DNA of 64,000 nucleotides from positions 85,437 through 149,436 of the forward strand of contig CAVZKT010000001.1 of assembly GCA_963775955.1 (NCBI GenBank), given 5' to 3'. Each line of letters starts with the position of its first letter. Position 1 is the first letter of the stretch. The stretch is from Candidatus Moraniibacteriota bacterium. Lineage in GTDB: Bacteria > Patescibacteriota > Minisyncoccia > Moranbacterales > UBA2206. A program made the translations under genes and the position numbers. The notes beneath the pieces were generated by a model. That model was not told the origin of the DNA, ran no database searches, and saw nothing but the letters and a program-made list of their open reading frames with translations. This document shows positions 2,164 through 63,092 of the stretch, one piece after another.

Positions 2164-3601
2164 ATGGCAATAAAACAGGCCAATTCTATGGATAAAATCG
2201 TCTCCCTTTGCAAAAGGCGAGGGTTTGTGTTTCCGGGAAGCGAGATTTACGGTGGGCTGGCCAATAGCTGGGATTTCGGGCCATATGGAACGGAATTAAA
2301 AAATAATATCAAGCAAGACTGGTGGAAAAATTTTGTGCAAAACCGCGAAGATATAGTTGGATTGGACGCGGCGATTATTATGAATCCAAAAGTGTGGGAA
2401 GCTAGCGGGCATGTTGTTAATTTTTATGATTATTTAATTGAATGTAAAAAGTGTCACAATAGAATAAGGCCAGATACTTTATTAAGCGATGAAGATAAAT
2501 TTAATTCTCGCATCCAAAATAAAAGAAATTAATGCTTTAATAGAAAAAGAAGAAACTAGCGCAACTGCTCAATTAGATAATGTTGAGAAAATTCACAAAG
2601 AAATTCAACAAATATACAAAAAGATAAAATGTCCTACTTGCTCTGAATCCAATTGGACGATGCCGGCAATGTTTAATTTAATGTTTCAGACCAGCATTGG
2701 CCCTAATCGAGAATTAGCTTCAGTCGCATATCTCCGTCCCGAAACGGCGCAGGGAATTTTCGTCAATTTTAAAAATATTTTGGATACCACACGGCAAAAA
2801 TTGCCGTTTGGAATCGCGCAAATAGGCAAAGCTTTTCGCAATGAAATTACGCCTGGAAATTTTATTTTTCGCACGCGCGAATTTGAGCAGATGGAAATCG
2901 AATATTTTTTTAATTCGGAAAAAACAAAATGGGAAGAAAAATTTGACCAGTGGTTGGAAGATTTTAAAATATGGATGAATAAAATCGGAATTGATTCTAA
3001 AAAATTATTTTTTCACAACATAGAAAAAGAAGAACTGGCGCATTATTCCCAAAAAACTATAGATGTAGAATTTGATTTTCCCTTTGGAAGAGAAGAATTG
3101 TTTGGACTGGCTTATCGTACGGATTTTGATTTAAAAAGCCATAAATTAAATTATAGGGATCCAGAAACGCAAAAAGAAATTATTCCCCACGTGATTGAGC
3201 CGAGTTTAGGAGTAGAGAGAATGGCGCTGGCGGTGATGCTTTCGGCTTACATTGAAGAAAAAATTGGAGATGAGATGCGGGTAGTGATGAAATTTAAGAA
3301 TGATCTGGCGCCGATCAAAGTTGCGATTTTTCCGCTTCTGCGCAATAAACCGGAGCTTGTAAAAATTGCCAAAAAGATATATGATGATCTGAAAACTCAA
3401 TTTACGTGTGAGTTTGACGACAACGGGAATATAGGCAAGCGTTATCGCCGGCAGGACGAAATCGGAACGCCCTATTGCGTCACAATTGATTTTGACACTC
3501 TGAAAGATAAGGCGGTAACAGTGCGAGATCGGGATACGATGAAACAGGAGAGGGTTAAGATTGATGATTTGGTAAAATATTTAACCAACAAACTTAAATA
3601 A
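2164..3601 (+). CDS. glyQS: Glycine--tRNA ligase (alpha2 type), frame change within 2489-2532
   Basis: ORFs 2164-2532 (frame 1) and 2489-3601 (frame 2) join into one GlyRS. Motifs: [42 protein letters not shown], plus an anticodon-binding C-terminus. Confidence 0.9.
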
Positions 3602-3604
3602 AAA

Positions 3605-4156
3605 ATGGTCAGTTTTTTTGAAAAAATTTTATCTGGTCAAGCGGGAAGCATTAGCTTTAATAAGAGTCCCGAAAAAATTGTTAAAGAAAAAGAAAATCTT
3701 GAAGGGATATTCAATAAGCTTTTAGCAAGCTTAAACAGTTCTGAAAATCAAGAAAATATTGACAATATTGTCGGTTCAAATTCTGCCAGCGAATTGGCTA
3801 AAAACATTCAAATGGCCAAAGATATTTTAGAAAAAACGGGACTGTTGGCCAGAAGCCACTCAAACGGCAAGGAAATTTTAAGAAATATAGAAGTTTCATT
3901 TAATGGTTTCTTGCGAAGGGATGCTGGAGCTAAAGAAAAAGGATTGGCAGGGTATGCGGATATTATAAAAGAAAACTATAATGAATTGAAAGATTTTGCC
4001 GATTTAATTATTGAATGTGGGGATTACAGAGAAAAAGAATTTGGAGATTATTCCGGATATTTAGCTGAGGACGAAGAAGAAGGTGCAAAGTTGCGGTCAA
4101 ACATGCGCGATTATATAGAAAAGTGCAAGCAAAAAATAAGAAGTCGGAGTAACTAA
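3605..4156 (+). CDS. Hypothetical protein (183 aa, helical, acidic C-terminus)
   Basis: Clean ORF tightly packed between glyQS and the next gene. No motif recognised. Confidence 0.5.
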   Translation: MVSFFEKILSGQAGSISFNKSPEKIVKEKENLEGIFNKLLASLNSSENQENIDNIVGSNSASELAKNIQMAKDILEKTGLLARSHSNGKEILRNIEVSFNGFLRRDAGAKEKGLAGYADIIKENYNELKDFADLIIECGDYREKEFGDYSGYLAEDEEEGAKLRSNMRDYIEKCKQKIRSRSN

Positions 4157-9024: not shown

Positions 9025-10437
9025 ATGAAAAATAATTTTATATCACAACCCCAATCTATTATGCCAATGCTAAACCGCATATCGGGCACGCCTACACGAC
9101 CATTGCGGCGGATGTTTTGGCGCGGTTTCACAAACTGCAAAATGAAGAAGTTTTCTTCTTGACCGGCATGGATGAGCACGGAGCTAAAATTCAAAAAGCG
9201 GCCGAAGCGCAAGGCAAAGATCCGCAAAAATTTGTGGACGAGATCGGAGAAGAATTCAAAGATCTCTGGGAAAAGCTTAATATAAAATACGATAATTTTA
9301 TTTGTACCACCAATTCAAAGCACAAGGAGGCGGTGCAAAAAGTTTTGCAAACTCTTTATGACAAGGGCGCGATTTATAAAGGCGAATATAAAGGATTGTA
9401 TTGTGTGGGATGCGAGCAGTTCAAAAATGAAAATGAGCTGGTTGAGGGTAAATGCCCGGATCACAATACTGTTCCAGAAAAAACACGGGAAGAGTGTTAT
9501 CTTTTGAAACTGACTGAAATACAGCCAAAATTGATTGAAAAAATTGAAAAGAACGAATTTGAGATTGCCCCGGAAAGATACAAGAATGAAATACTCTCTT
9601 TTCTTAAAAGCCAGGAACTCAAAGATATTTCTGTTTCCAGGAAGAATGTTGAAATGGGGAGTGCCGCTTCCATTTGACTCGGAGCATACAACCTATGTTT
9701 GGGTGGACGCGTTTTTAAATTATCTCACCGGACTTGGCTGGGATGGCGATATGAATAATATTCCAAAACAATGGCCGGCCGATGTGCAGTTAATCGGCAA
9801 AGATATTTTGCGTGTTCATGCGACTATTTGGCCGGCGATTCTTTTGCATTTAGGGATTGGCCTCCCCAAAATACTTTTTACTCACGGGCATATTCTTTCC
9901 GGCGGGAAAAAAATGAGCAAAACTTTAGGCAATGTGATTAGTATTGATGAAATGCTGGAAAAATTCGGGACGGATGGGACGCGCTATCTTTTGCTTAGCG
10001 CCGGAACATTTGGAGACGATGTGAATGTGACAATGGAAAGAATGATTGAGAAATATAATGCTGATTTGGCGAATGGATTGGGAAATTTAATTTCGCGAGT
10101 TATAAAACTCGCTCAGAATTTCCAATTTCCAATTTCCAATTTCCAATCAATTTCCAATGACCAATTTTTAAATTTTATAAAAAATATAGAAATTGATAAA
10201 GCATTGGATTACGTATGGAATATTATTCAGGCTGATAATAAATACATTGAAGAAAATAAACCATGGGAACTTGTGAAAACCGATAAGAAAAAATTTGAGG
10301 AAGTAATGCGAAAGTTAATTATGGATTTACTTAATATTGCCGATTTAGTATTGCCTTTCATGCCTGAAACTTCGGAGAAAATCAAGAAAGCGCTAGAAAC
10401 CAAAAAAGTTGAACCGCTTTTTCAAAGAATAAAATAA
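9025..10437 (+). CDS. metG: Methionine--tRNA ligase (short form), frame changes near 9035 and 9535-9677
   Basis: ITTPIYYANAKPHIGHAYTTIAAD (HIGH) is readable just after ATG 9025 in a shifted frame. Also FLTGMDEHG, a Zn knuckle CVGCEQF...CPDH, and KMSKTLGN (KMSKS). Confidence 0.88.
10117..10170. repeat. Tandem heptamer array (AATTTCC x4 plus degenerate copies) inside metG
   Basis: Read directly. Translated as NFQFPISNFQSISNDQ. The same word array is in leuS at 19572-19637. Confidence 0.9.
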
Positions 10438-16342: not shown

Positions 16343-17756
<1,414 letters not shown>

Positions 17757-21331: not shown

Positions 21332-23197
21332 ATGTGCGGAATCGTGGGTTATATCGGCAAACAAAAAGCGGTGCCGATCCTTATTGAAGGGCTAAAAAGA
21401 CTGGAATACCGGGGCTATGACAGCGCCGGTTTAGCCGTAATTGGAAAGAATAAAATTACAAATGTTAAAGCTGTCGGAAGAGTGGCGGAACTTGAAAATA
21501 AAATCAACGGCCTGCCCGCATCGCTATGCGAAGCATTGCAGGCGGGGAAAAATATTTCAGGAACAATTGGCATAGCGCACACCCGTTGGGCGACGCACGG
21601 AAAACCAAGTGACAGAAATTCCCATCCCCACTCCGATTGCAAAAAAGAAATATACCTTGTCCACAATGGAATCATAGAAAATTATAAAGAACTGAAAGAA
21701 CGGTTAACTAAAAAAGGCCATAAATTTACTTCTGAAACCGACAGTGAAGTTATTGCGCATCTCATTGAAGAATTTAATAAAAAATTAGATTTTAAAAATT
21801 CAGTCATTGAAGCGCTGGAACTGCTTAAAGGAACTTATGGCTTGGCCATTATCAGCAAGCGGGAGCCGGACAAAATAATCGCCGCGCGAATGGGCAGTCC
21901 TTTGGTAATCGGGCTCGGGCGCGATGAAAATATCATTGCTTCCGATGTTTCGGCGATTGTGCGGCACACCGGTCAGGTGATATACCTTGATGACGGAGAA
22001 GTGGCGATTGTCGCGCCGGAAAACTACGAAGTGATAAATATCAAAAAGAAAAAAGTTGAAAAGAAAATCACTAGGCTTGACTGGTCTGTTGAAAAGGCGG
22101 AAAAGGGAGGCTGCGCCCATTTTATGCTCAAGGAAATTTTTGAACAGCCGCATACGATTGAAGATGCAATTCGGGGAAGGTTGGTTGTGCCCGAAGGAAT
22201 GGCAAAATTAGGAGGACTGCGAGATGTCGCAGAACGCTTAAGAGATATTAAAAAAATTATTATTGTCAGCTGCGGAACTTCGTATTATGCCGGGCTTATT
22301 GGCGAATATATGATTGAAGAATACGCTGGAATTCCAGTGGAAGTGGAATATGCCAGCGAATTCCGCTACCGAAAACCAATACTGGGTAAAAATACCGCAG
22401 TGATTGCCATCTCCCAATCCGGTGAAACAGCGGATACTTTGGAAGCGGTGCGAGAGGCAAAAAATAAAGGCGCGCTGGCCCTGGGAATAGTGAATACAGT
22501 CGGATCTACGATTGCCCGGGAAACTGACGCCGGGGTTTACAATTATGCCGGGCCGGAAATTGGGGTGGCTTCAACCAAATCTTTCACTTCGCAGCTTAGC
22601 ATTTTTGTTTTGATAACTCTGATGCTCGGACGACAGCGGGAAATGTCATTTGTGATGGGTAAAAGAATCGCCGGCGAAATGGCAAAAATTCCGAAATTAA
22701 TAAATGTCGTGCTAGAAAAAAGTAGCGACATTAAAAAAATCGCAGCTAAATATCTGAAATATGAAAATTTTTTGTATCTGGGAAGAAAATATAATTTTCC
22801 CATTGCCTGCGAAGGAGCGCTAAAGATAAAAGAAATTTCCTATGTCCACGCGGAAAGATATCCGACGGGCGAAATGAAGCACGGGCCCATCGCCCTGATT
22901 TCCAAAAATTTTCCTTCCATTTTTATTGCTCCACGGGACAGCGTGTATGAAAAAAATATTTCGGGCATGCAGGAAATAAAAGCGCGAGGCGGAAAAATAA
23001 TTGCCATTGCCACCAAGGGGGACAAGGAAATAAAGAAACTGGCCGATGATGTGATTTATATCCCCAAAACCCTGGAGATGCTCACGCCGTTGTTGTCCGT
23101 CGTGCCGTTGCAACTTTTCGCGTATTATGTCGGAACATTAAAAGGCTTTGATGTGGATAAACCCCGTAACCTGGCAAAGTCAGTAACAGTAGAATAG
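21332..23197 (+). CDS. glmS: Glutamine--fructose-6-phosphate aminotransferase
   Basis: MCGIVGY start, GIAHTRWATHG, two SIS domains, C-terminal DVDKPRNLAKSVTVE. Confidence 0.97.
   Translation: MCGIVGYIGKQKAVPILIEGLKRLEYRGYDSAGLAVIGKNKITNVKAVGRVAELENKINGLPASLCEALQAGKNISGTIGIAHTRWATHGKPSDRNSHPHSDCKKEIYLVHNGIIENYKELKERLTKKGHKFTSETDSEVIAHLIEEFNKKLDFKNSVIEALELLKGTYGLAIISKREPDKIIAARMGSPLVIGLGRDENIIASDVSAIVRHTGQVIYLDDGEVAIVAPENYEVINIKKKKVEKKITRLDWSVEKAEKGGCAHFMLKEIFEQPHTIEDAIRGRLVVPEGMAKLGGLRDVAERLRDIKKIIIVSCGTSYYAGLIGEYMIEEYAGIPVEVEYASEFRYRKPILGKNTAVIAISQSGETADTLEAVREAKNKGALALGIVNTVGSTIARETDAGVYNYAGPEIGVASTKSFTSQLSIFVLITLMLGRQREMSFVMGKRIAGEMAKIPKLINVVLEKSSDIKKIAAKYLKYENFLYLGRKYNFPIACEGALKIKEISYVHAERYPTGEMKHGPIALISKNFPSIFIAPRDSVYEKNISGMQEIKARGGKIIAIATKGDKEIKKLADDVIYIPKTLEMLTPLLSVVPLQLFAYYVGTLKGFDVDKPRNLAKSVTVE
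21511..21549. repeat. Hairpin element P1 (inverted copy) translated in frame within glmS
   Basis: CCTGCCC-GCATCGCTATGCGAAGCATTGC-AGGCGGGG. The core is the exact reverse complement of the tgt copy. Confidence 0.85.
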
Positions 23198-23215
23198 CAA
23201 GGGATATGATGCCTG

Positions 23216-23246
23216 CCCCGCACCAAGCGAAGCTTTGGTGCCGGGG
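23216..23246. repeat. Hairpin element P2 (CCCCGCACCAAGC-GAA-GCTTTGGTGCCGGGG)
   Basis: Read directly. A second copy with a flipped loop is at 30921-30951. Confidence 0.85.
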
Positions 23247-23290
23247 TGGATAAGCCTCGGAATCTGGCAAAAAGTGTGACAGTTGAATAG
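23246..23290 (+). other. Second, untranslated copy of the last 14 glmS codons plus stop
   Basis: Encodes VDKPRNLAKSVTVE*, identical to 23153-23197, with 10 nt differences in 8 codons, all synonymous. It is 48 nt downstream of the real stop and in the same frame. Confidence 0.9.
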
Positions 23291-23305
23291 GAAAAGAAAA
23301 TATTT

Positions 23306-23338
23306 AAGTACGTACCCGAGTACGTACTTTTTCTTTTT
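23306..23338 (+). terminator. Rho-independent terminator after the duplicated glmS end
   Basis: AAGTACGTAC-CCGA-GTACGTACTT stem-loop followed by a T-run. Confidence 0.75.
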
Positions 23339-23391
23339 AATAAAAAATTCTGCGTTTTTCCGCGCATAACTCCGCGCCCCTCGGCGGTTAT

Positions 23392-23419: not shown

Positions 23420-23447
23420 TTGACACCCTTTTAAATTGTTGTATAAT
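23420..23447 (+). promoter_or_regulatory. Sigma70-type promoter (TTGACA-16-TATAAT)
   Basis: Consensus hexamers at 23420-23425 and 23442-23447, in a spacer between convergent genes. Confidence 0.65.
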
Positions 23448-23453
23448 TATATT

Positions 23454-23621
23454 ATCTCAATCTTAGTTTTTAGCTGTTTAACAATAAACCAAAACAGATC
23501 AATGTATCTGATTGGCTCTCCAGGAAAGGAGGTGAAAAGCCATATTATAGTTTCACAAAACGCAAGACCCCTGGGTTAGATCATAGATTTCTATGATTCT
23601 AATCCGGGGGTTACTTATTTT
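23454..23621 (+). ncRNA. Candidate small RNA (unknown class) bounded by a consensus promoter and a long terminator hairpin
   Basis: No ORF. Contains GAAAGGAGGTGA (23524-23535). Has a 20-bp imperfect stem at 23567-23611 followed by a T-rich tail. Confidence 0.4.
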
Positions 23622-23634
23622 AAAATAATAAAAA

Positions 23635-23656
23635 CAGGCTTTTAGCCTGCTTTTTT
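23635..23656. terminator. Bidirectional terminator (CAGGCT-TTT-AGCCTG, A-run / T-run)
   Basis: Read directly. Lies just downstream of the minus-strand gene ending at 23678. Confidence 0.75.
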
Positions 23657-30799: not shown

Positions 30800-30806
30800 A
30801 TGGATG

Positions 30807-30889
30807 TGCCCGAGGAGAGAGTCGAACTCTCATGAGATTGCTCTCACACGATTTTGAGTCGTGCGTGTCTGCCATTCCACCACTCGGGC
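30807..30889 (-). tRNA. tRNA-Leu (anticodon CAA)
   Basis: Folded by hand. Acceptor GCCCGAG/CUCGGGC, anticodon stem CACGA/UCGUG with loop CUCAAAA, long variable arm, T arm GAGAG-UUCGACU-CUCUC, discriminator A. CCA is not encoded. Confidence 0.9.
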
Positions 30890-30920
30890 ACCATTTGTGC
30901 GGGGTAAATCTGCCAGCTTG

Positions 30921-30951
30921 CCCCGCACCAAGCTTCGCTTTGGTGCGCGGG
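30921..30951. repeat. Hairpin element P2 (CCCCGCACCAAGC-TTC-GCTTTGGTGCGCGGG)
   Basis: Same stem as 23216-23246 with the loop reverse-complemented. An additional GCGGGG (30899-30904) pairs with CCCCGC. Confidence 0.85.
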
Positions 30952-30990
30952 TTCCGCCATCTCGGCAAATATGATATACTGGAGTTAATT

Positions 30991-34428: not shown

Positions 34429-36656
34429 TTACTTTTCAAACTTACACTCTTTGTTTGAACATTTGATTTTGCCTTTGGCGGCGAAGACAAGAAGGGACTT
34501 GCATTGCGGGCAGATTTCGCCGTTAGGTTTGTTCCAGAGCGCGAAGTCGCATTTGGGATAAGTATTGCAGCCGTAAAACAGACGGCCGCGTTTGGATTTT
34601 CGCTCAACAATATCCCCAACATTGCATTTAGGGCAAGTAATGCCCGTTTTCTTTTCAATTTTTTTAATGCCTTTGCATTGGGGATAATTGGAACAGCCGA
34701 GAAAAGTTCCAAATTTGCCGCGCTTCACCGCCATCGGCGCGCCGCAAATTTCGCAAATTTCGCCCCTATGTTCTTCATCCACTTTTTTTTCCGCGTCTGT
34801 TTTTTCCGTATGCTTGCAATTCGGATAGTTGGAGCAGGCGATGAATTTTCCAAAGCGCCCGAACTTCATGATCAAATCCCCGCCGCAATCGGGGCAGGCG
34901 CGGTCAAGTTTTTCCTGAAAATCTTCCTTTTTCACTTCTTTGGTTTTGGCCTCCAGATTTTTTTGGAAGGGCTTGTAAAATTCGCGGATTACCGGAACCC
35001 ACTTTCTTTTGCCTTCGGCAATTTCGTCAAAATCCATTTCAATGGTGGCGGTGAATTTAATATCCACTATTTCCGGAAAATGAGCGACCAAAAGATCATT
35101 GACTAAGGCGCCGATTTCCAGGGGATATAATCTTTTTTCTTCATTTTTATCGACATATTTTCTTTCAATAATAGTGGAAATTGTCGGCGCGTAAGTTGAC
35201 GGCCGGCCGATGCCGTTTTCTTCCATAACTTTTACCAGGGTGGCCTCATTGTAGCGCGGAGGCGCGGCTGTTTCTTTTTGGGCGGCCAGGATTCCGACCA
35301 AATCCAGATTTTCGCCGATTTTCATTTTTGGCAAAAGATTTTCGCCGTTGGCTTTGCCGTCCGTAGACTTTTGAGATAACCGTCAAATTTAACAGTGGAT
35401 CCATTAGCCTGCAATAAATATTTGTTTTTACCAGTAGCATCCACTTCGAGTTTTACTGAATCGAAAATTGCCGGCTGCATCTGGGAAGCAAGCATCTTTT
35501 TCCAGATGAGGCTGTATAATTTATATTCGCTTGGATCAATTTTGGCTTTCAGGTCATCCGGAGTTTTGTCGGGATAGGCCGGACGGATGGCCTCATGTGC
35601 TTCCTGGGCGCCTTTAGATTTGGTTTTATAAAATTTCGGATCAGGGAGAGCGTAATTTTTTCCGAATAACCGCGCGATGGTTTTTTGCGCGGAAAGCATT
35701 GACTCTAAAGAAAGATTCAGGCTGTCGGTGCGCATATAGGTGATATATCCTTTTTCGTAAAGTTTCTGCGCCTTGCTCATGGTGAACTTGGCGGAAAATC
35801 CCAGATTGCTGATAGCCGCCTGCTGCAGGGAAGAAGTGGTGAAAGGAGGGGAGGGATAACGCAGAGTTTCTTTTTCAGTTATATTACTGACTTTGAATTT
35901 AGCGCGCTTAAGATCGGCCACAATTTCGTCAGCCTTTTTCTGGCTGTCGATTAAAGTCTTTTTAATTTTATAATCGCCGGCGAATAATTTTAAGATTGCG
36001 GCTTGTTCAATTTTCTCACCGTTTTTTTCCGTGAGATTGGCCGTAAAATCCTGCTTTGAGCTCTGAACTTTGAACTTTGAATTTATAGCGTAGTATTTTT
36101 CAGACTTGAATTTTTCGATTTCTCTTTCTCTTTCAACGATCAGGCGCAGAGCTACCGATTGCACGCGCCCGGCGGAAAGTCCGCGGCGGATTTTTTTCCA
36201 GAGGAACGGGGAAAGTTCAAAACCGACCAGACGGTCCAAAATTCTTCTGGCTTGCTGGGCGTCCACCAGATTAAGATCAATCGCGCGCGGATTGTCTAAT
36301 GCTTTTTCAATGGCGCTTTTGGTAATTTCGTGAAAAACAATGCGCTTTGCTTCTTTGGGATTTAAATCCAAGGCTGAAACCAAATGCCAGGAAATAGCTT
36401 CTCCTTCGCGGTCTTCGTCAGTGGCGAGAATCACGTCTTCAGATTTTTTGGCCAGTTCTTTGAGTTCCTCTACTCTCTCGGCGGATTTGGCCGGAATAAC
36501 ATATTCCGGCGCAAAGTTATTCTCAATATCAATGCCCATTTTTTTGGCGGGCAGATCGCGGATATGGCCGTAGGAAGATTTAACGGTAAAAGCCTTCCCT
36601 AAAAATTTGGAAATAGTTTTGGCTTTAGTGGGGGACTCAACTATAACTAGCTTCAT
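34429..36656 (-). CDS. topA: DNA topoisomerase I, frame change near 35322-35334
   Basis: KLVIVESPTKAKTI, TOPRIM DEDREGE, and four C-terminal Cys4 zinc ribbons. Start at MKLVIVES (36656); an alternative is 36677. Confidence 0.92.
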
Positions 36657-36728
36657 GGAGCATGGAACATGGAACATGGAACAATTTTTCTTTAAATTGT
36701 TTTATGTTCTATGTTATGTGTTATGTGA
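36654..36728. repeat. Hairpin built from CATGGAA words (left) and GTTCTATG/GTTATGTG words (right)
   Basis: CATGGAGCATGGAACATGGAACATGGAAC ... GTTCTATGTTATGTGTTATGTG. It overlaps the topA start and the dprA stop. Confidence 0.75.
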
Positions 36729-37809
36729 TTATATAATTCTGTCCTCCGATATTTTTTACCCAGCCTTTTATTTCCATCAAAGCGAGCGTGGAAGAAACGG
36801 ACACTGCTCCCAGTTTAGACAGTTTGGAAATATTGTCAATATGAATGGGATCGCCGGACAAATATTTTAATAAAATTTCTTCTTCTTTATTTTCGGGAAT
36901 TTTGGGAAGCGGACTGGTTTTTTCCCGGCCTTCGTTTAAGTTTAATTCTTCCAGAATATCTTTGACGCCAGTGGCGATTTTCGCGCCCTGGCGCAAAAGA
37001 TTATTGGTGCCGGCCGATTGCGGAGAAAATATCGAACCGGGGACGGAAAAAACTTCGCGGTTATATTCCAGCGCGCAACTGGCGGTAATGAGCGTTCCAC
37101 TTTCTTCGCCCGCCTCAACGACCAAAGTTCCCAGGGATAGCCCGGCGATGATCCGGTTTCTGGCCGGAAAATTTCCCGGCAGCCCCGCCGGTGTTTCAAT
37201 TGGATAGTCTGAGATAAGCGCGCCGTTTTCCATAATCTCGCGCGCCAAATTGAAATTCACGCGCGGATAAATATTGGCATCGTCCAGGCTTCCTCCCAAA
37301 ACGGCGATTGTTTTTCCGCCGCCATCAAGCGCGCCGCGGTGGGCGATGGCGTCAATACCAATAGCCATTCCACTCACTACTGTTACGCCGGCACCGGCCA
37401 AGTCTTTGGCAAAAGAACTGGCGGCTTGCGCGCCATAAGAAGTATATTTTCTGGAACCGACAATGGAAATCATAGGACGCGCGTTCAGGTCCAAAGTTTC
37501 GTCATTTGACTTCATGTATATAATATAAGGCGGATTGGAGGTTTCTTTGAGAAGCGCAGGATAATTGGGGCTGGGAAAGGTAATCATTTTAACATTTTCT
37601 TTTTGCATTTTTTTCCACTCAGCGTCCGGGTCAATGATTTTTCTTTGCTCGCAAATCTTTTCCGCTATTTTTTCACCGACTTTGCTCGCCAAAAGCGTGT
37701 TAAAATCGGCCTGCCAGATATTTTCCGGCTCGCCGAAATAAGAAAGCAAGGCGCGCATTTTCTGCGAGCCCAGTCCCTGGATTTTATTGAGAGCGTTTAA
37801 GTATTTCAA
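36721..37809 (-). CDS. dprA: DNA processing protein DprA
   Basis: 362 aa, SGMAIGIDAIAHRGAL Rossmann-like core, C-terminal wHTH. Confidence 0.92.
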   Translation of the reverse strand: MKYLNALNKIQGLGSQKMRALLSYFGEPENIWQADFNTLLASKVGEKIAEKICEQRKIIDPDAEWKKMQKENVKMITFPSPNYPALLKETSNPPYIIYMKSNDETLDLNARPMISIVGSRKYTSYGAQAASSFAKDLAGAGVTVVSGMAIGIDAIAHRGALDGGGKTIAVLGGSLDDANIYPRVNFNLAREIMENGALISDYPIETPAGLPGNFPARNRIIAGLSLGTLVVEAGEESGTLITASCALEYNREVFSVPGSIFSPQSAGTNNLLRQGAKIATGVKDILEELNLNEGREKTSPLPKIPENKEEEILLKYLSGDPIHIDNISKLSKLGAVSVSSTLALMEIKGWVKNIGGQNYIIT

Positions 37810-37867: not shown

Positions 37868-38116
37868 ATGAGAAAGAAAAATTTAAAACCGATTAAGTTC
37901 CGCCAGGAGCTTTTTTGGGACGTTAATCTCAAGACAATTGATCCCAAAAAACACGCTGAATATATCATCGAGCGGATTTTGGATTTTGGGAGAGATAATG
38001 AAGTGAGGTGGATGAATAAATTTTATTCAAGAGTAATTATCAAAAGAACTCTAGATGGTTCCAGGGTTTTACACAATAAGACAAGAGCTTTATGGCAACT
38101 ACTGCTAAAAAACTAG
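37868..38116 (+). CDS. Small protein paired with AbiEii-type nucleotidyltransferase (putative antitoxin/partner)
   Basis: 82 aa, overlaps the next ORF by 25 nt. No HTH recognised. Confidence 0.5.
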   Translation: MRKKNLKPIKFRQELFWDVNLKTIDPKKHAEYIIERILDFGRDNEVRWMNKFYSRVIIKRTLDGSRVLHNKTRALWQLLLKN

Positions 38117-38778
38117 AAAACACGGAATTAAAATTTGAAATCTTGCCATCAAAAACAAAAAAAGCTTTTTTGTATTGCGCGGAAAGTTTTTTCTGGTTGA
38201 ATAAGTATGGATTATATCTTGCTGGTGGAACAGCACTGGCCTTGCAGACTGGCCACAGACAATCAGTGGATCTTGATTTTTTTACAAGAAAAGATGACTT
38301 TAACAATGTATCTTTGGAAAGAAAATTATTATCTACTAAAAATTGGGAAACAACATACGCTGAAGAAGGAACGATTTACGGAAAACTAGCCGGCGCAAAA
38401 ATGAGCCTTATCGCTTATCCTTTTTTTATTCCTGCCAGGCCGTTTTTAAAATTTGGAAAGTTAAGAATTTTAGCCAAAGAAGATATCGCAGTTATGAAAA
38501 TAATCGCAATTAGCCAGAGAGGTCGTAAACGTGATTTTGTGGACTTGTATTGGTATTTTAGAAACTGTGAACCGCTTATAGATGTGCTTCGGCGGGTAAA
38601 AAAACAATATCCTCAACAGAAACACAATATGCATCATTTTTTAAAAAGTCTGGTATACTTTGACGATGCAGAAAAAGATCCGATGCCATCTCTGTTTTTT
38701 TCTGTTTCATGGAAAGAGATCAAAAGTTATTTTCAAAAAGAAATTAAGCAGGTTTCGGAATCTTTAAATTTATTATAA
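38092..38778 (+). CDS. Nucleotidyltransferase, AbiEii/AbiGii toxin family (DUF1814-like)
   Basis: LAGGTALALQTGHRQSVDLDFFT motif. Confidence 0.75.
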   Translation: MATTAKKLENTELKFEILPSKTKKAFLYCAESFFWLNKYGLYLAGGTALALQTGHRQSVDLDFFTRKDDFNNVSLERKLLSTKNWETTYAEEGTIYGKLAGAKMSLIAYPFFIPARPFLKFGKLRILAKEDIAVMKIIAISQRGRKRDFVDLYWYFRNCEPLIDVLRRVKKQYPQQKHNMHHFLKSLVYFDDAEKDPMPSLFFSVSWKEIKSYFQKEIKQVSESLNLL

Positions 38779-53404: not shown

Positions 53405-54070
53405 ATGGAACAATTAACATCAAAGCAAAATACGGTTTTGGAAACTATCCGGGAAATTATTGAGGCGGAAAAAGAAAATCCGACGACTTATCGCGTGCAT
53501 AAATTTTTGGAAGAAAGGGGGGTGGAAGTCGGCAGCCTCAAGGGAACAGTCCAAGTCATTGAAGCGCTGGAGAAAAAAGATCTGCTTAAGCGCGATAAAA
53601 GCAAAAAAATATATCTGGTGGAAAATGATAATTATGCCAACCTGGGAAATATTTTTTCCATTCCGATGTATGGCCTGGCTTCCTGTGGAGAAGCGCTGGC
53701 TTATGCCGAAGGCAATGTGGATGGATATCTCCAAATTTCCGAAAGCCTTTTCAGAAAGGCCGATCCGGCCAAACTTTTTGCCGTAAAAGCTTTGGGTGAT
53801 TCCATGGACAAAGAGGAAATCGGCGACGGTGATTATGTAGTTTTTGAAAAATGCGAACTGGACCAGGATTTTGAAAATAAAATAGTGGTGGCAGTCATCA
53901 ACGGCATGGCGACGATCAAGAGATATAAAAAACTCAAGCACGGCATCATCGGACTTTTTCCGCAATCGCGAAATCCCATCCACCAGCCGATTTATTTGGA
54001 TGAATCAGACTCCATTCTCATTGCCGGAATTTTCCGCAAAGTCCTGCCGGTGGCGTATGTGAGCTTGTAA
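53405..54070 (+). CDS. lexA: LexA-type repressor (wHTH plus S24 peptidase)
   Basis: N-terminal LTSKQNTVLETIRE wHTH, an ASCGEALAYAEG cleavage-site region, GDSM (Ser) and ATIKRY (Lys). Confidence 0.88.
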   Translation: MEQLTSKQNTVLETIREIIEAEKENPTTYRVHKFLEERGVEVGSLKGTVQVIEALEKKDLLKRDKSKKIYLVENDNYANLGNIFSIPMYGLASCGEALAYAEGNVDGYLQISESLFRKADPAKLFAVKALGDSMDKEEIGDGDYVVFEKCELDQDFENKIVVAVINGMATIKRYKKLKHGIIGLFPQSRNPIHQPIYLDESDSILIAGIFRKVLPVAYVSL

Positions 54071-54104
54071 AAGACGGGGTAAAAACCAATAAAAAGCTGA
54101 AATT

Positions 54105-54929
54105 ATGGAAACAACAAAAATAGTTTTATTTAGAAATCGAAAAATCAGGAAAACTTTGCATAATAATGAGTGGTGGTTTGTGGTTGAAGATGTTGTATTT
54201 GCGCTTACGGATTCAGTTAATCCCAAGGATTATATAAATAAGATGAGGACCAGAGATAAAGAATTAAACAAGGGGTATGGACAAATTGTCCATACCCTTG
54301 AGGTTCCAACTGGGGGAGGAAAACAAAAAATGAATTGTGCGGATACGGAAGGCATTTTTCGCATTATTCAATCAATCCCGTCATCCAAAGCCGAACCATT
54401 TAAGCGCTGGCTGGCGAAAGTTGGGTATGAACGAGTGCAAGAAATTAAAAACCCGGAACTGGCAACTAAAAGAACAAGGATACTTTATAAGCTCAAAGGA
54501 TATAGCGATGACTGGATTGAAAAACGGATGCGCGGAATCGCTGTCCGCGAAGAATTGACGGACGAATGGCAAAAGCGAGGCGCGCGCGAACAAAAAAATT
54601 ATGAAATTCTGACGGCGGAAATTTCCAGGGCGACTTTCGGAATGACCCCGGGCAAATACAAAAAATATAAAAACCTGAAGCGCGAAAATTTGCGGGATCA
54701 CATGGATGATTTGGAACTGATTTTCACTATGCTGGGAGAAAGGGCAACAACGGAAATTCATCGCGACGAAAATTCTTATGGTATGCCAAAATTAAAAACT
54801 GATGCCAGGGAAGGCGGCGATATTGCCGGCGGAGCAAGGAGAAAATTGGAAAAAAGGCTAGGGAGACCTGTTACGACCAGGAGCAATTATAAGAAAATAA
54901 AACCGGGGAAGATTATAGAACGGCGATAG
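54105..54929 (+). CDS. Bro-N domain protein with DinD-like C-terminal region (DNA-damage-inducible protein D-like / antirepressor-like)
   Basis: WWFVVEDVVFALTD...GGGKQKMNCADTEGIFRIIQSIPSSKAEPFKRWLAKV (Bro-N pattern). The C-terminus KNLKRENLRDHMDDLELIF resembles DinD as recalled from memory. Confidence 0.65.
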   Translation: METTKIVLFRNRKIRKTLHNNEWWFVVEDVVFALTDSVNPKDYINKMRTRDKELNKGYGQIVHTLEVPTGGGKQKMNCADTEGIFRIIQSIPSSKAEPFKRWLAKVGYERVQEIKNPELATKRTRILYKLKGYSDDWIEKRMRGIAVREELTDEWQKRGAREQKNYEILTAEISRATFGMTPGKYKKYKNLKRENLRDHMDDLELIFTMLGERATTEIHRDENSYGMPKLKTDAREGGDIAGGARRKLEKRLGRPVTTRSNYKKIKPGKIIERR

Positions 54930-55087
54930 TATTCTTTTTCGGAAAGTTATGCTGGAAGTGTACGTGAATTTGTAAAATTGCTTTAGTGCGTTAAAAAGAC
55001 TATAATTATAAAAGAAACAGTAAAATAAAAAAATAACACTTACAGTATGTCGCAAATCAATATTGTAAATAATAATTTTATTAAAAT

Positions 55088-55285
55088 ATGATTGATGCCA
55101 GAAAGCCAAATTATTCAGAAACAGTAGACCAAACTCAAGAATTAATTTTTCTAATTGAAAAGCTCGAGAAAAATGTTTTGTTTCAGCTTCCACAAGGCAT
55201 TGCTAATAATTTTATCGCAACAAAAAATATTTTTTTGAATTGGATCGAAGAAGTCGAGTTCACTTTGGAAAATTATAAAAAATAA
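55088..55285 (+). CDS. Hypothetical small protein (65 aa) in AT-rich islet
   Basis: ORF only. No RBS, no motif. Confidence 0.35.
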   Translation: MIDARKPNYSETVDQTQELIFLIEKLEKNVLFQLPQGIANNFIATKNIFLNWIEEVEFTLENYKK

Positions 55286-55298
55286 TAAAAAATCAAAT

Positions 55299-55805
55299 AT
55301 GATTAAGTATCAATTTTTTCCAAGATCAGTTGGAATAAATAAACAAGTCCAAAAAATTATTGATTGCTTTTTAGCTGTTAATGATAGAATTTGTTCGCCA
55401 GAGCACACTCTTTCAAGTAATGAGGTCCTGTCAATTTTAAGATTGCAGTTGCTTAAAGTGCCAATGAGAGTTGAACAAGGGAAAGCTAGGGGATCAAAAA
55501 TTCCTGTCCCTGTCTTATTTGGTCTTGATAATAAAATTGATCAGCATTTCGATGCTGATGCATTAAGTTCTGATGGAACAATTGTTTTAGAAGTAGAAGC
55601 AGGAAGAGCGGTTGATAATTATCAGTTTTTAAAAGATATATTTCAAGCCTCAATGATGTATGGAGTTGAATACTTAGTTTTAGCTGTAAGAAATAATTAT
55701 CGCGGGCATGATGATTTTAAGAAAATATATACTTTTTTAGAAACACTTTATATTAGCAATAGGCTCCATCTACCACTAAAAGGTGTTTTGTTGGTAGGGT
55801 ATTGA
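55299..55805 (+). CDS. Hypothetical protein with PD-(D/E)xK-like D...ExE signature (BamHI-like arrangement)
   Basis: FDADALSSDGTIVLEVEAGRAVDNYQFLKD. Compare the BamHI D94...E111-F-E113 layout recalled from memory. AT-rich and lacks an SD. Confidence 0.4.
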   Translation: MIKYQFFPRSVGINKQVQKIIDCFLAVNDRICSPEHTLSSNEVLSILRLQLLKVPMRVEQGKARGSKIPVPVLFGLDNKIDQHFDADALSSDGTIVLEVEAGRAVDNYQFLKDIFQASMMYGVEYLVLAVRNNYRGHDDFKKIYTFLETLYISNRLHLPLKGVLLVGY

Positions 55806-55927
55806 TTTTTTGGATATTTTAAAATTTATCTAAATAGTATCTCCAATTTTTTAAATGAAAACAATCAAACCAAAACCAAGCGACAAGGAATATATTTTTA
55901 AAATAGAGTTACTTTTGAAGAATAACT

Positions 55928-57244
55928 ATGAACCAAAAAACCGCGTTGGAAATTTTAAAGCTGGGGCATAATGTTTTTTTGACCGGGGCGGCGGGAAGCG
56001 GGAAAACCTATCTTTTAAACCAATATATCCAATATCTTAAAAGTAAAAATATCAAAACAGCGGTGACAGCTTCCACCGGCATTGCGGCCACGCATATGAG
56101 CGGCATCACGATTCATTCATGGTCGGGCATGGGCATTAAAGATAAAATTACGGAGATTGATTTGCGCAAGCTTTCCCGCAACCGGCGCGTGCAAAAGCGG
56201 ATGGAAAAAACCAAAGTCTTGATTATCGATGAGATCTCAATGCTCCATGCCCATCAGTTGGACAATGTAGACAAAATTTGCCGATATCTGAAAGAAGAAA
56301 CCTTCTTGCCCTTTGGCGGCTTGCAAGTTGTGTTGTGCGGTGATTTTTTTCAACTTCCGCCGGTACAAAAAAACAGAAGTGAAAAAGTAAAATTTGCCCA
56401 TACTTCTCAAGTCTGGCAAGAAATGAAACTCAAGGTGTGTTATCTGGATGAACAGCACCGGCAAGAGGATGATCGCATGCTGGAGCTGCTAAATGATATC
56501 CGAGGCGCTAGGGTGAGCGAAAGAACTTGGGAAATAATATTGTCGCGCGGAAACAAGGAAATTTCAGAAATTAGCCAACCGACAAAACTTTTTACGCACA
56601 ATGTTGATGTTGACGGGATTAATAATCGCGAGTTGGAAAAAATTAAAGAAAAATCACTGGGCTATGAAATGCAAGCCAGGGGCAATAAAAAATTGATTGA
56701 ATTTCTCAAGCAAAGCTGTTTGGCGCCGGAGAAGTTGGTTCTCAAAAAAGGCGCGCGGGTAATGTTTGTCAAAAATAATTTTGATGAAGGATATGTTAAT
56801 GGAACAGTTGGAGATATAATCGGTTTTAATCCGGAAAACAATTTTCCGGTGGTCAAGACCTTGCAGGGAAGAAAAATAATTGTTTCTCCGGCGACCTGGG
56901 AAGTGCTGGAAGATGATGTGGCGCTGGCTAGAATAAAGCAAATCCCGTTGCGCCTGGCTTGGGCGATTACGGTGCATAAAAGCCAAGGCATGAGTTTGGA
57001 CGCGGCTGAAATTGATTTAGGAAAATCATTTGAATATGGAATGGGTTATGTGGCGTTGTCGCGCGTCAGAAAACTTTCCGGTATAAAGCTTTTAGGAATT
57101 AATGAAATGGCTTTGGAAATAAGCGAAGAAATATATAAACTGGATAATGAGTTGCAAAAGTTATCAGAGGATGCCAAACAAGAACTGGAAAAAATAGATT
57201 GGTTTGAAAAAAGAGAAAAACAAAGAAAGTTTGCCTGTGGATAA
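55928..57244 (+). CDS. pif1: PIF1/RecD-family SF1 DNA helicase
   Basis: FLTGAAGSGKT (Walker A), LIIDEISM (Walker B), LCGDFFQLPPV, ITVHKSQGMSLD. Confidence 0.88.
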   Translation: MNQKTALEILKLGHNVFLTGAAGSGKTYLLNQYIQYLKSKNIKTAVTASTGIAATHMSGITIHSWSGMGIKDKITEIDLRKLSRNRRVQKRMEKTKVLIIDEISMLHAHQLDNVDKICRYLKEETFLPFGGLQVVLCGDFFQLPPVQKNRSEKVKFAHTSQVWQEMKLKVCYLDEQHRQEDDRMLELLNDIRGARVSERTWEIILSRGNKEISEISQPTKLFTHNVDVDGINNRELEKIKEKSLGYEMQARGNKKLIEFLKQSCLAPEKLVLKKGARVMFVKNNFDEGYVNGTVGDIIGFNPENNFPVVKTLQGRKIIVSPATWEVLEDDVALARIKQIPLRLAWAITVHKSQGMSLDAAEIDLGKSFEYGMGYVALSRVRKLSGIKLLGINEMALEISEEIYKLDNELQKLSEDAKQELEKIDWFEKREKQRKFACG

Positions 57245-61640: not shown

Positions 61641-63092
61641 ATGACCAAATCCAAAATCTTCCTCGTTTTATCTTTAAGTTTTATTTCCGGAATTTTTTTA
61701 GCGTCTTTTTTCAAACTAGATGCTTTTTTATTTTACGCGCTGGCGGTAATTTCCGTCATAATTGTTACCTTGGGTTATAAAAATAAAATCGCACTGATTG
61801 TGGGGTTGGCAATTTTATTTCTGGCATTGGGAATCTGGCGGACGCAAAGCGATCTTCAAAAAATTGCGGAAAATAATCTGGACGGAAAAAATATTTCTGA
61901 AAATGTGGTGGTCGCCAAAGAGCCGGAGGAAAAAGATAATTACAAAAATATTGTGGTAAAAACAGAAGAAGGGCTAAAAGTTTTAGTACGCGCGAACATT
62001 AATTCTGACATAAATTACGGCGATGAATTAAAAATTGAATGCGCGCTGAAAATTCCGGAAAACAAGGAAGATTTTGATTATAAAATGTATTTAGCCAAGG
62101 ACAAAATTTTCTATCTTTGCCAAGGCGCCAAATTCGAGAAAACCGGAAATAATCGGGGCAACAAACTCTATGCGGGAATATTAAATTTAAAAAACAAAAT
62201 GGCGGGCAATATCAACCGCGTGGTTCCCTATCCGGAATCGGCTTTGGGAAGCGGGCTTATTTTCGGCGGAAGCGGAGATTTGCCGAAGGAACTGAAAAAT
62301 AATTTTTCCCGCACCGGCATGACCCATATCGTGGCTGTTTCCGGCTATAATGTCACAATCATCGCGGAATATCTGATTTTATTCGGCATATTTTTCGGAC
62401 TTGGGAGAAAACAAGCTTTTTGGTTCGCGATTTTCGGAATAATTTTATTTGTAACGATGATCGGCCTCCCTTCCTCGGCGGTGCGCGCCGGAGTGATGGG
62501 TTCACTTCTGCTTTGGGCGATGAAAAACGGGCGGCTCGCCAATTCCTGGAACGCCATAATTTTTGCCGGCGCGGTGATGCTTTTCATTAACCCGCTGGTT
62601 TTGCGCTGGGATATCGGGTTCCAGCTTTCATTTCTGGCGGCCATCGGCATAATCGCGCTCGCGCCTTTTTGGGAAAAGGTGTTTATTAAAAACCACAAAG
62701 CATTAGGCTTTTCCGAAATATTTTTTTTGACTTTTTCGGCTCAGATTTTTGTCCTGCCGGTGATTCTTTATAATTTTCAAACTCTGTCAGTCGTATCTCT
62801 GGCCGCCAATTTGTTGATTTTTCCCGTCATTCCCGTTTCCATGCTCCTGGTTTTCTTGACCGCGGTTGCCGGATTGATTTTTACAACCCTGTCTTTGCCC
62901 TTTGCCTGGCTGGCGTATCTTCCGCTAAAATACGAGGTGTGGATAATTGAGACTTTGGGAGGCCTGACTTGGGCCAGCAAGCCAATAAAAAGTTTTGGCT
63001 GGCAAGGATTCTTTTTATGGTATCTGGCGCTGGGTCTGGCGGTTTATCTATTAAAGAAAAAATTAAATGCTAAACCGGAAAATAATTTATAG
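61641..63092 (+). CDS. comEC: ComEC/Rec2 DNA internalisation channel (DUF4131 plus competence domain)
   Basis: 483 aa, polytopic. GMTHIVAVSGYNVTII motif. Confidence 0.88.
   Translation: MTKSKIFLVLSLSFISGIFLASFFKLDAFLFYALAVISVIIVTLGYKNKIALIVGLAILFLALGIWRTQSDLQKIAENNLDGKNISENVVVAKEPEEKDNYKNIVVKTEEGLKVLVRANINSDINYGDELKIECALKIPENKEDFDYKMYLAKDKIFYLCQGAKFEKTGNNRGNKLYAGILNLKNKMAGNINRVVPYPESALGSGLIFGGSGDLPKELKNNFSRTGMTHIVAVSGYNVTIIAEYLILFGIFFGLGRKQAFWFAIFGIILFVTMIGLPSSAVRAGVMGSLLLWAMKNGRLANSWNAIIFAGAVMLFINPLVLRWDIGFQLSFLAAIGIIALAPFWEKVFIKNHKALGFSEIFFLTFSAQIFVLPVILYNFQTLSVVSLAANLLIFPVIPVSMLLVFLTAVAGLIFTTLSLPFAWLAYLPLKYEVWIIETLGGLTWASKPIKSFGWQGFFLWYLALGLAVYLLKKKLNAKPENNL

Follow-up and report, generated by a model that had tools for sequence, protein, structure and literature searches.

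Tn7 inserts about 20 to 25 bp downstream of glmS with a 5-bp duplication and without copying the gene end, and its TnsD protein binds the last 36 bp of glmS, where it reads the non-wobble positions (PMC2918618). Insertion sequences (IS) of the IS200/IS605 kind have subterminal hairpins, act on single-stranded DNA, insert 3' of a short target and restore the gene when excised (ISDra2, PMC2806898; IS608, PMC5934647), while the systems formed by doublets of repetitive extragenic palindromic (REP) sequences (REPINs) and REP-associated tyrosine transposases (RAYTs) persist vertically in lineages over long periods. IStrons make insertion into a gene harmless (PMC4227781). The locus described here lies in a 64-kb window, i.e., the whole stretch of 64,000 nucleotides (nt) that was analyzed (contig CAVZKT010000001.1, positions 85,437 to 149,436), in which the last 14 codons of glmS are present twice with a small hairpin between the two copies. 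Tentatively, and with slightly less than even confidence, we read the hairpin spacer plus one gene-end copy as a miniature non-autonomous element of the REP/IS200 kind, a cassette that carries a replacement glmS end.

The duplicated segment, 36 to 45 nt, coincides with the TnsD binding site. The initial annotation of the window had called glmS ends classic integration targets, but the likeness to Tn7 is partial: Tn7 copies no gene end, and here the repeat of 45 nt is the gene end itself. Tn7 elements are recognized by tnsA, tnsB, tnsC, tnsD or tniQ genes, TGT...ACA ends and 22-bp TnsB sites; no rve, TniQ or TnsA domain was found by a Pfam scan of the window proteins, which covered 47 of the 65 open reading frames (ORFs). 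Integrative elements at the 3' ends of genes and tRNAs (tRNA phages, islands, SCCmec at rlmH) leave, as in our locus, direct repeats of the gene end with silent differences, as well as arrays, and in them the element-borne copy becomes the working end and the native end lies downstream, which is also what we propose for glmS. However, they measure kilobases and bring an integrase, whereas here the insert is of about 90 nt, no recombinase lies nearby and an identical crossover core is missing. The proposed cassette would also resemble IStrons, mobile introns and inteins in surviving inside an essential, conserved gene by neutralizing its own damage. Those elements excise themselves at the level of RNA or protein, whereas the remedy at glmS would act at the DNA level, as a spare coding end with its stop codon.

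The two ends of glmS

The window glmS (positions 21332-23197, forward strand) codes for a protein of 621 amino acids (aa) with the Pfam domains GATase_6/GATase_7 and two SIS domains. It ends in copy 1 (23153-23197, GTGGATAAACCCCGTAACCTGGCAAAGTCAGTAACAGTAGAATAG), the translated last 14 codons and TAG, and after a spacer of 48 nt (23198-23245) the same end is found again, untranslated, as copy 2 (23246-23290, GTGGATAAGCCTCGGAATCTGGCAAAAAGTGTGACAGTTGAATAG), all on the forward strand. Both copies translate to VDKPRNLAKSVTVE and a stop. Between them there are 10 nt differences, spread over 8 codons, all of them synonymous and including a three-base switch of the Ser codon (TCA versus AGT). The pair is the longest close direct repeat of the whole window. 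This doubling with only synonymous differences had been noticed in the initial annotation, and its letters and coordinates were confirmed. Copy 2 had also been placed in the same frame, and the 93 nt between the two copy starts do keep the copies in frame, but an in-frame TGA in the spacer (23207-23209) had gone unnoticed. It is the fourth codon past the glmS stop and blocks readthrough into copy 2, upstream of which there is no start codon in its frame.

Most of the spacer is indeed a hairpin, computed by folding at 23215-23247 (forward strand), whose foot (CCCCGCA/(C)CGGGG) is conserved and whose top varies, with a single C bulged out. Alone it folds with -21.6 kcal/mol (z = -2.9). It is preceded by a conserved motif, GATGCCTG (23208-23215), and on the 3' side the foot reaches up to copy 2 or takes in the first base of that copy. 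A hairpin resembling an intrinsic terminator, with a T run (23306-23339, forward strand; 10-bp stem and 4-nt loop, then TTTCTTTTT), was found after copy 2, where the annotation had a terminator.

The arrangement recurs in other genomes, and literature searches, like Rfam, gave no published description of a duplicated glmS end. Among 80 loci with a related glmS in species-representative genomes, two have a perfect second end downstream, namely L003 (Moranbacteria RIFOXYB1_FULL_43_19) and L007, a Parcubacteria genome whose spacer of 195 nt holds four hairpins in tandem; a degenerate second copy was found in none of the 80. Metagenomes were scanned, irrespective of any hairpin, for two glmS ends 55-85 nt apart, with a pattern that left the first eight codons of copy 2 free, forced its last six codons and imposed only the T of its stop codon. 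The 39 contigs recovered, together with the window, L003 and L007, make up 36 distinct copy pairs from genomes of 33-74% G+C, including those of the candidate phyla radiation (CPR). The second copy comprises 14 codons, 11-12 or, rarely, 7-8, and in most pairs the hairpin ends exactly where the second copy starts. Some versions are identical across separate samples (L003 = L095 = L114; L084 = L110 = L118), and the structure was found in at least 40 independent assemblies of different projects. The same architecture in independent assemblies and the identical versions exclude chance and an assembly artefact, a possibility that the annotation had named. Six contigs carry arrays of 3-6 units, mostly tandem amplifications of the two-copy unit (A-B-A-B-A-B in L087, A-B-A' in L107). 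Arrays of 3-6 glmS ends outside the CPR, partly in high-G+C genomes, lie at 2160-2740 in L087, 4008-4352 in L094, 10887-11053 in L113 and 1517-1767 in L106; L113 and L083 have units of about 40 nt with no hairpin between them.

Substitutions were counted only in codons left free by the search, in 29 independent pairs that are homologous through codons -11 to -7. We found 85 synonymous against 4 non-synonymous codon differences, and 22, 4 and 82 nucleotide differences at the first, second and third codon positions. All 29 second copies end in a stop codon (TAA in 15, TAG in 9 and TGA in 5), and the codon family of Ser is discordant between copies in 9 of 23 pairs, about the same as in two unrelated glmS genes. 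Since the divergence is of the synonymous kind and the stops are intact, both copies derive from sequence that evolved as a real glmS end, as had been proposed for the window, and both are, or recently were, real coding ends.

Copy 2 cannot be translated where it stands. The lengths of the 36 spacers are split 16:12:8 over the three frames, in-frame stops interrupt several of them (TGA in the window; TAA or TAG in L003, L082 and L086), and the spacers of L105 and L115 differ by one base, and thus in frame, with copy 2 intact in both. Together these three observations lead us to reject translation in place, even with 10 of the 13 CPR spacers being multiples of three by hand count. In seven pairs of related genomes both members carry the structure, and the differences between their second copies are almost all silent: a count by eye over the five free codons gave 23 third-, 5 first- and 2 second-position changes, and all five first-position changes are synonymous, of the CGN/AGR or CTN/TTR kind. 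Between L105 and L115, whose hosts have diverged by 28% at wobble positions, copy 2 has no change at 30 non-wobble positions and the spacer is identical at 42 of 45 positions; the spacers of L003 and L082 are identical at 38 of 45, with one compensatory change in the stem. First positions change only if the amino acid is kept, TCN is equivalent to AGY, and a stop is required, so the constraint is that of translation and not of a DNA reader. Such a constraint on a copy that is not translated in place implies that each second copy has been a working gene end recently or intermittently. A less conventional variant would be that the untranslated copy 2 is under amino-acid-type selection in place, through some read-out, and this would amount to an unusual protein-like constraint on untranslated DNA.

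To see which copy is native, we compared both, over 36 nt, with the glmS ends of the nearest relatives that have just one. Of 16 comparisons, 11 placed copy 2 nearer to the relative and 3 placed copy 1 nearer. In L003, copy 2 matches the relatives at 31-32 of 36 nt, as expected for genes that are 83-85% identical, while copy 1 matches at 24 of 36, which is background. Copy 2 appears to behave as the native end in the L003 clade, the one with close enough relatives, and copy 1 as a newcomer, in agreement with the annotated idea that an element brings a replacement end. For the window and its nearest single-copy relative, L213, the figures are 28 of 36 for copy 2 and 22 of 36 for copy 1, and copy 1 would be the imported copy. 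The G+C content at third codon positions follows the host in both copies (r = 0.73 and 0.80), suggesting donors of similar composition, and a compositionally distant foreign donor was rejected. Distance correlations intended to show which copy travels with the hairpin were uninformative because the wobble sites are saturated. Overall, the observation is real, and the comparisons support its core interpretation of two independently evolved coding ends, one of them brought in.

The hairpin family and a Y1 transposase at the same site

The window hairpin belongs to a family present on at least 13 CPR contigs (members were folded one sequence at a time, and their loop lengths differ). At least 15 hairpins from CPR contigs share the motif GAYGCYTG followed by CCCCGYR, and the consensus of the CPR spacers is GAYGCYTG-CCCCGYR...YRCGGGG, directly followed by GTNGAYAAR. 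The foot and the 5' motif are kept, while the upper stem and the loop vary with pairing preserved; many members also have bulges. G-U pairs number one or two per hairpin, and 18 of 22 members fold more stably on the sense strand than on the antisense strand. A scan of the window against Rfam 15 (E <= 10) gave no match overlapping the hairpin or copy 2, tRNA alone reaching the gathering score, and a scan of eight other two-copy loci (E <= 1) left their hairpins and second copies without a match.

On the glmS strand the hairpin motif was found in none of 77 single-copy loci; in CPR contigs it occurs beside glmS only where copy 2 is present. One single-copy locus (L056) has an antisense match to the motif about 60 nt beyond the glmS stop. 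Neither the hairpin nor copy 2 is present in the window's five closest relatives (GlmS identity 82-87%), two of which retain the same downstream gene. Because the motif is tied to copy 2 and both are absent from close relatives, hairpin and copy 2 come and go as one unit. A high-G+C group (L088, L093, L098 and L120) shares another hairpin, with a nearly perfect stem of 18-19 bp, that is better conserved than the host genes (41 of 47 spacer positions identical, against 73% identity of the glmS tails). The divergence of the hairpins tracks that of their hosts. In L007 (4841-5028), the 195 nt between the glmS ends are taken up by four CPR-family hairpins in tandem, whose tops are very dissimilar, and this stretch has no stop codon after the TAG of glmS.

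The hairpin is not confined to glmS. A second member (30920-30952, forward strand), about 90% identical and with its 3-nt loop inverted (TTC versus GAA), sits between the gene of a tRNA-Leu(CAA) (30806-30889, reverse strand; ARAGORN and Rfam) and parA on the forward strand. The 14 nt directly past it (30952-30965, forward strand) resemble the end of the adjacent tRNA gene (30875-30887) with 13 matches, one mismatch and one single-base gap, so that hairpin and tRNA-like stretch have the same geometry as hairpin and copy 2 at glmS; this likeness was noticed post hoc and has P of about 0.002-0.004 if restricted to the location but P = 0.11 if unrestricted. An imperfect palindrome that recurs in the genome and keeps its foot and 5' flank, the element has the marks of REP sequences and IS200 miniatures. 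Within 30890-30990, the sequence GTGCGGGG precedes the second hairpin and is the complement of its foot.

Relatives of L003 with 85-91% identical GlmS have an ORF of 219 aa directly after glmS (P0122, P0123, P0128, P0130, P0140 and genomes L001 and L004). Its product matches the Pfam family Y1_Tnp (IS200-like) with 28.2 bits, the gathering score being 23, and the NCBIfam RAYT model with 28 bits, below the cut-off of 80. An identical palindrome of 23-25 nt stands on both sides of this Y1 gene, which stays beside glmS also where another gene follows (Nramp, a kinase, or a PHP-domain protein between). The unit was located in many Moranbacteria: at 2933-3690 in L218, with the Y1 reading frame at 3002-3661, 2831-3570 in L220 and 2831-3600 in L228, and also in L219 and L221-L227. 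Exactly where these relatives carry the Y1 unit, L003 and L082 carry the hairpin and the second copy. Next to the right palindrome of L228 comes GGGTGGATAAGC, a junction sequence that L228 has in common with the window. Part of GGGTGGATAAGC is the 11-mer GGGTGGATAAG, which stands at the junction of hairpin and copy 2 in the window and L007 and has just 3 occurrences in the 1.87 Mb of sequence compared. Past the right palindrome, L228 (3545-3595) has a short tandem of TCTCGGGTGGATAA(GC/AT).

A proposed hairpin cassette and its alternatives

Under the cassette reading, the mobile unit would consist of replacement codons for the last 14 of glmS, a stop, a short spacer and the hairpin, and would be inserted at codon -14. 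After insertion, glmS would end in copy 1, supplied by the cassette, and the native copy 2 would be pushed past the hairpin, untranslated. A Y1 (HUH) transposase acting in trans on the single-strand hairpin would move the cassette, which by excising seamlessly would turn copy 2 back into the working end. Alternation between occupied and empty sites within a lineage or population would keep both copies protein-competent while silent sites drift. We thus envisage that a Y1 enzyme moves the cassette and that excision is reversible. Such a model accounts for the synonymous-only divergence, the intact stop, the independence from frame and the exact junction of hairpin and copy, as well as for the joint gain or loss of hairpin and copy, the arrays and the co-divergence of hairpin and host, which also matches the vertical persistence of REPIN-RAYT systems.

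The behavior of the hairpin as a dispersed repeat, at tRNA-Leu and four times in tandem in L007, favors this interpretation. Like REPs, REPINs and miniature IS200/IS605 elements, it is a short imperfect palindrome just after genes, with a conserved foot and 5' flank, several copies per genome, tandem clusters (L007), strand-specific structure and persistence in lineages, and a palindrome-flanked Y1 gene occupies the very same site in sister lineages. By analogy, the strand bias of 18 of 22 hairpins may be related to single-stranded cleavage and joining, otherwise known from ISDra2 and IS608.

Several observations weigh against the cassette. REPs, REPINs and IS200/IS605 elements are not known to carry a piece of the target or neighboring gene or to sit inside a coding end, and classical IS200/IS605 elements have two different hairpin ends and REPINs are doublets, whereas here there is one hairpin. 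By tblastn and phmmer with the Moranbacteria protein, neither the 64-kb window nor any two-copy contig showed a Y1 homologue, and the Pfam scan of 47 of the 65 window ORFs gave no Y1 transposase. The palindromes flanking the Y1 gene are a sequence family different from the window hairpin, and the Y1 loci have no full second glmS end. No sample was seen with both an occupied and an empty site. In L105/L115 and L003/L082, copy 2 has not decayed at a synonymous divergence of 0.3-0.6, so the model needs either repeated excision and re-insertion or recent independent insertions, neither of which was observed. For the window, two more distant relatives reverse the order and favor copy 1, leaving its native copy ambiguous, and the wobble sites are nearly saturated. 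Finally, cases outside the CPR have other hairpins or none, and some resemble plain tandem amplification; the metagenome set may mix several processes, some non-CPR cases probably being simple tandem amplifications.

The annotation had proposed an attL/attR-type scar, that is, a conventional integrative element (phage, island, or integrative and conjugative element, with a tyrosine or serine integrase) that lost its interior and left its attachment sites about 50 nt apart. Two diverged, protein-competent gene ends in direct orientation are what would be expected of 3'-end integration, the native look of L003 copy 2 fits as well, and the arrays resemble tandem accretion. Yet with 48 nt between the direct repeats there is neither a recombinase gene nor an element body: no integrase, recombinase or Tn7 gene was found among the 47 window ORFs, and none of these downstream on 14 long two-copy contigs, whose ORFs were read by eye. 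No locus has a clear large insert between recognizable copies, such as had been expected in relatives, the largest spacer being the 195 nt of L007; what separates the copies is always a small conserved hairpin, and independent deletions would not each leave the same hairpin of 40-60 nt. The identical core between copies is of at most 5-8 nt in several genomes, and no phage-borne hairpin with a copy was found in IMG/VR, where an attP search with two hairpin patterns gave 0 matches (an earlier first pattern had given one chance match). We regard such a scar as unlikely. A pattern for the glmS end had 92 matches in IMG/VR, and the 80 analyzed (L121-L200) were almost all full-length or contig-truncated glmS genes. 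Some are in giant-virus bins, others begin inside glmS, as expected of neighboring prophages, and one (L137) is a short fragment not otherwise like glmS. The alternative of a 3' module selected by the host, with the hairpin as an RNA structure or terminator and copy 2 as a decoy or landing pad of the TnsD/TniQ type or as a spare end after damage, is rather unlikely in our estimation. It would explain the conservation of the hairpin and of non-wobble positions in copy 2 among related pairs, whose wobble positions change at about the neutral rate (as in L105/L115, and in L003/L082 with their compensatory stem change), and it agrees with the co-divergence of hairpin and host, the greater stability of the sense strand with its G-U pairs, and the fact that copy 2 is by sequence a complete TnsD-type site. 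But a protein reading DNA does not explain amino-acid-preserving first-position changes, TCN/AGY swaps, or the use of all three stops and never TGG; there are no Tn7-like genes nearby among the scanned window ORFs and no match to a described RNA family, and since it is lacking in the five closest relatives and in 77 of 80 genomes, the module must be dispensable.

Plain local tandem duplication by slippage or unequal exchange, followed by drift, would produce near-identical units with their flanking DNA and amplified arrays, as in L094, L106, L113, L087 and L119, or the 38 identical nt shared by the copies of L088. The CPR copies, though, differ at 9-16 positions (10 in the window) without any non-synonymous change, while most of the differences are expected in a freely drifting untranslated copy, about three in four of these altering the protein. 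Nor does duplication explain why the Ser codon family differs as often as in unrelated genes, or the conserved hairpin family. This pattern of substitutions leads us to reject it for the window, and its probability is very low. Hardly better are the chances that copy 2 is translated after all, by stop readthrough, by ribosome hopping over the hairpin or after removal of the spacer from the RNA. The amino-acid-type constraint, which includes the stop codon, and the CPR spacers in multiples of three speak for it, and a hairpin beside a stop codon recalls the known bypass signals of T4 gene 60. Programmed readthrough or bypass is recognized by a conserved open frame or by conserved take-off and landing codons, which we did not find here; the in-frame stops, the missing start codon, the frame split and the one-base difference between L105 and L115 speak against it, and hopping would yield the same protein with no evident benefit. 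An assembly artefact, with collapsed or chimeric alleles, is barely credible: the split topA and MetRS genes of the window suggest indel errors, but the structure is shared by independent assemblies and identical in separate samples, and neither a structured spacer nor a 45-nt copy differing by 10 substitutions can come from indel noise.

Other candidates were rejected more directly. Diversity-generating retroelements also have an untranslated, protein-like copy of a 3' end just downstream and a hairpin after the coding copy, but the differences seen here are not adenine-specific (copy 2 has G, T, G, T, A, AGT, G and T), and there is no reverse transcriptase among the neighboring genes and no A bias. 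A CRISPR repeat-spacer or Cas1-type duplication does not fit spacers that are homologous hairpins with varying upper stems, nor copies that are not identical (10 mismatches to the own glmS end), and the 47 ORFs have no cas domains. A small ORF arising from the spacer fails because the ATG of GATGCC is out of frame and meets a stop, and L003 and L082 have no start. An antisense gene (the shadow ORF at 23125-23367, reverse strand) cannot be behind the codon periodicity, since TCN/AGY swaps leave Ser in place on the sense strand but alter the residue on the other. Gene conversion from copy 1 would homogenize the wobble sites, yet those are near saturation, and selection through lethal deletion products would give no advantage inside two-copy lineages.

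If the cassette reading is true, it extends the known abilities of hairpin elements of the REP/IS200 type, and a spare gene end would be a third route into essential genes, besides self-splicing and safe-harbor targeting. The glmS end would be a target for more than Tn7. It is possible, though doubtful, that there exists a widespread and undescribed class of miniature cassettes made of a hairpin and the recoded last 11-14 codons of glmS, moved by Y1/HUH enzymes and preserving two independent ends over long periods through reversible excision; in that joint reading, and with equal reserve, their target would be the same 36-45 bp that Tn7 recognizes. A Y1 protein together with a defined hairpin and a defined target would offer a handle on the movement of REP-like sequences, which is poorly understood. 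The locus would also be a natural example of a recoded duplicate that is stable because its wobble positions differ, and genomes with at least two TnsD-type sites after glmS may mislead mini-Tn7 tools and gene callers.

Surroundings of the locus

The window GlmS is 70-87% identical overall to GlmS of Moranbacteria and Parcubacteria (70-72% for the best matches among species representatives, 82-87% in a large protein collection), and, as judged from sequence, the host is a CPR bacterium near these groups. The window is ordinary chromosome with genes for ATP synthase, tRNA synthetases, parAB, relA, topA, dprA and comEC, and downstream of glmS follow genes for YjbQ/UPF0047, NUDIX, GNAT, radical SAM and methyltransferase proteins and an ABC ATPase. 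Between 23420 and 23447 there is a perfect promoter (TTGACA-16-TATAAT), followed by about 200 nt with no ORF and a terminator at 23635-23649. The stretch 23420-23650 may be a small RNA or a leader, with no convincing match to it in Rfam. The relative L214 has, downstream of its glmS, a block that agrees at about 31 positions with a 37-nt block within this stretch (23524-23560, GAAAGGAGGTGAAAAGCCATATTATAGTTTCACAAAA).

Some housekeeping genes look split or truncated (34429-36677, 9117-10437 and 16521-17393): topA consists of two overlapping ORFs, MetRS of two ORFs, and the beta subunit of ATP synthase has just 290 aa, which suggests assembly indel errors or pseudogenes. An AbiEii-type toxin gene was found at 38092-38778, and a cluster with a LexA-like S24 peptidase, a Bro-N protein and a PIF1 helicase (53405-57244) may be a prophage or another mobile remnant. 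The genes dprA (36721-37809) and comEC (61641-63092) point to a capacity for DNA uptake.

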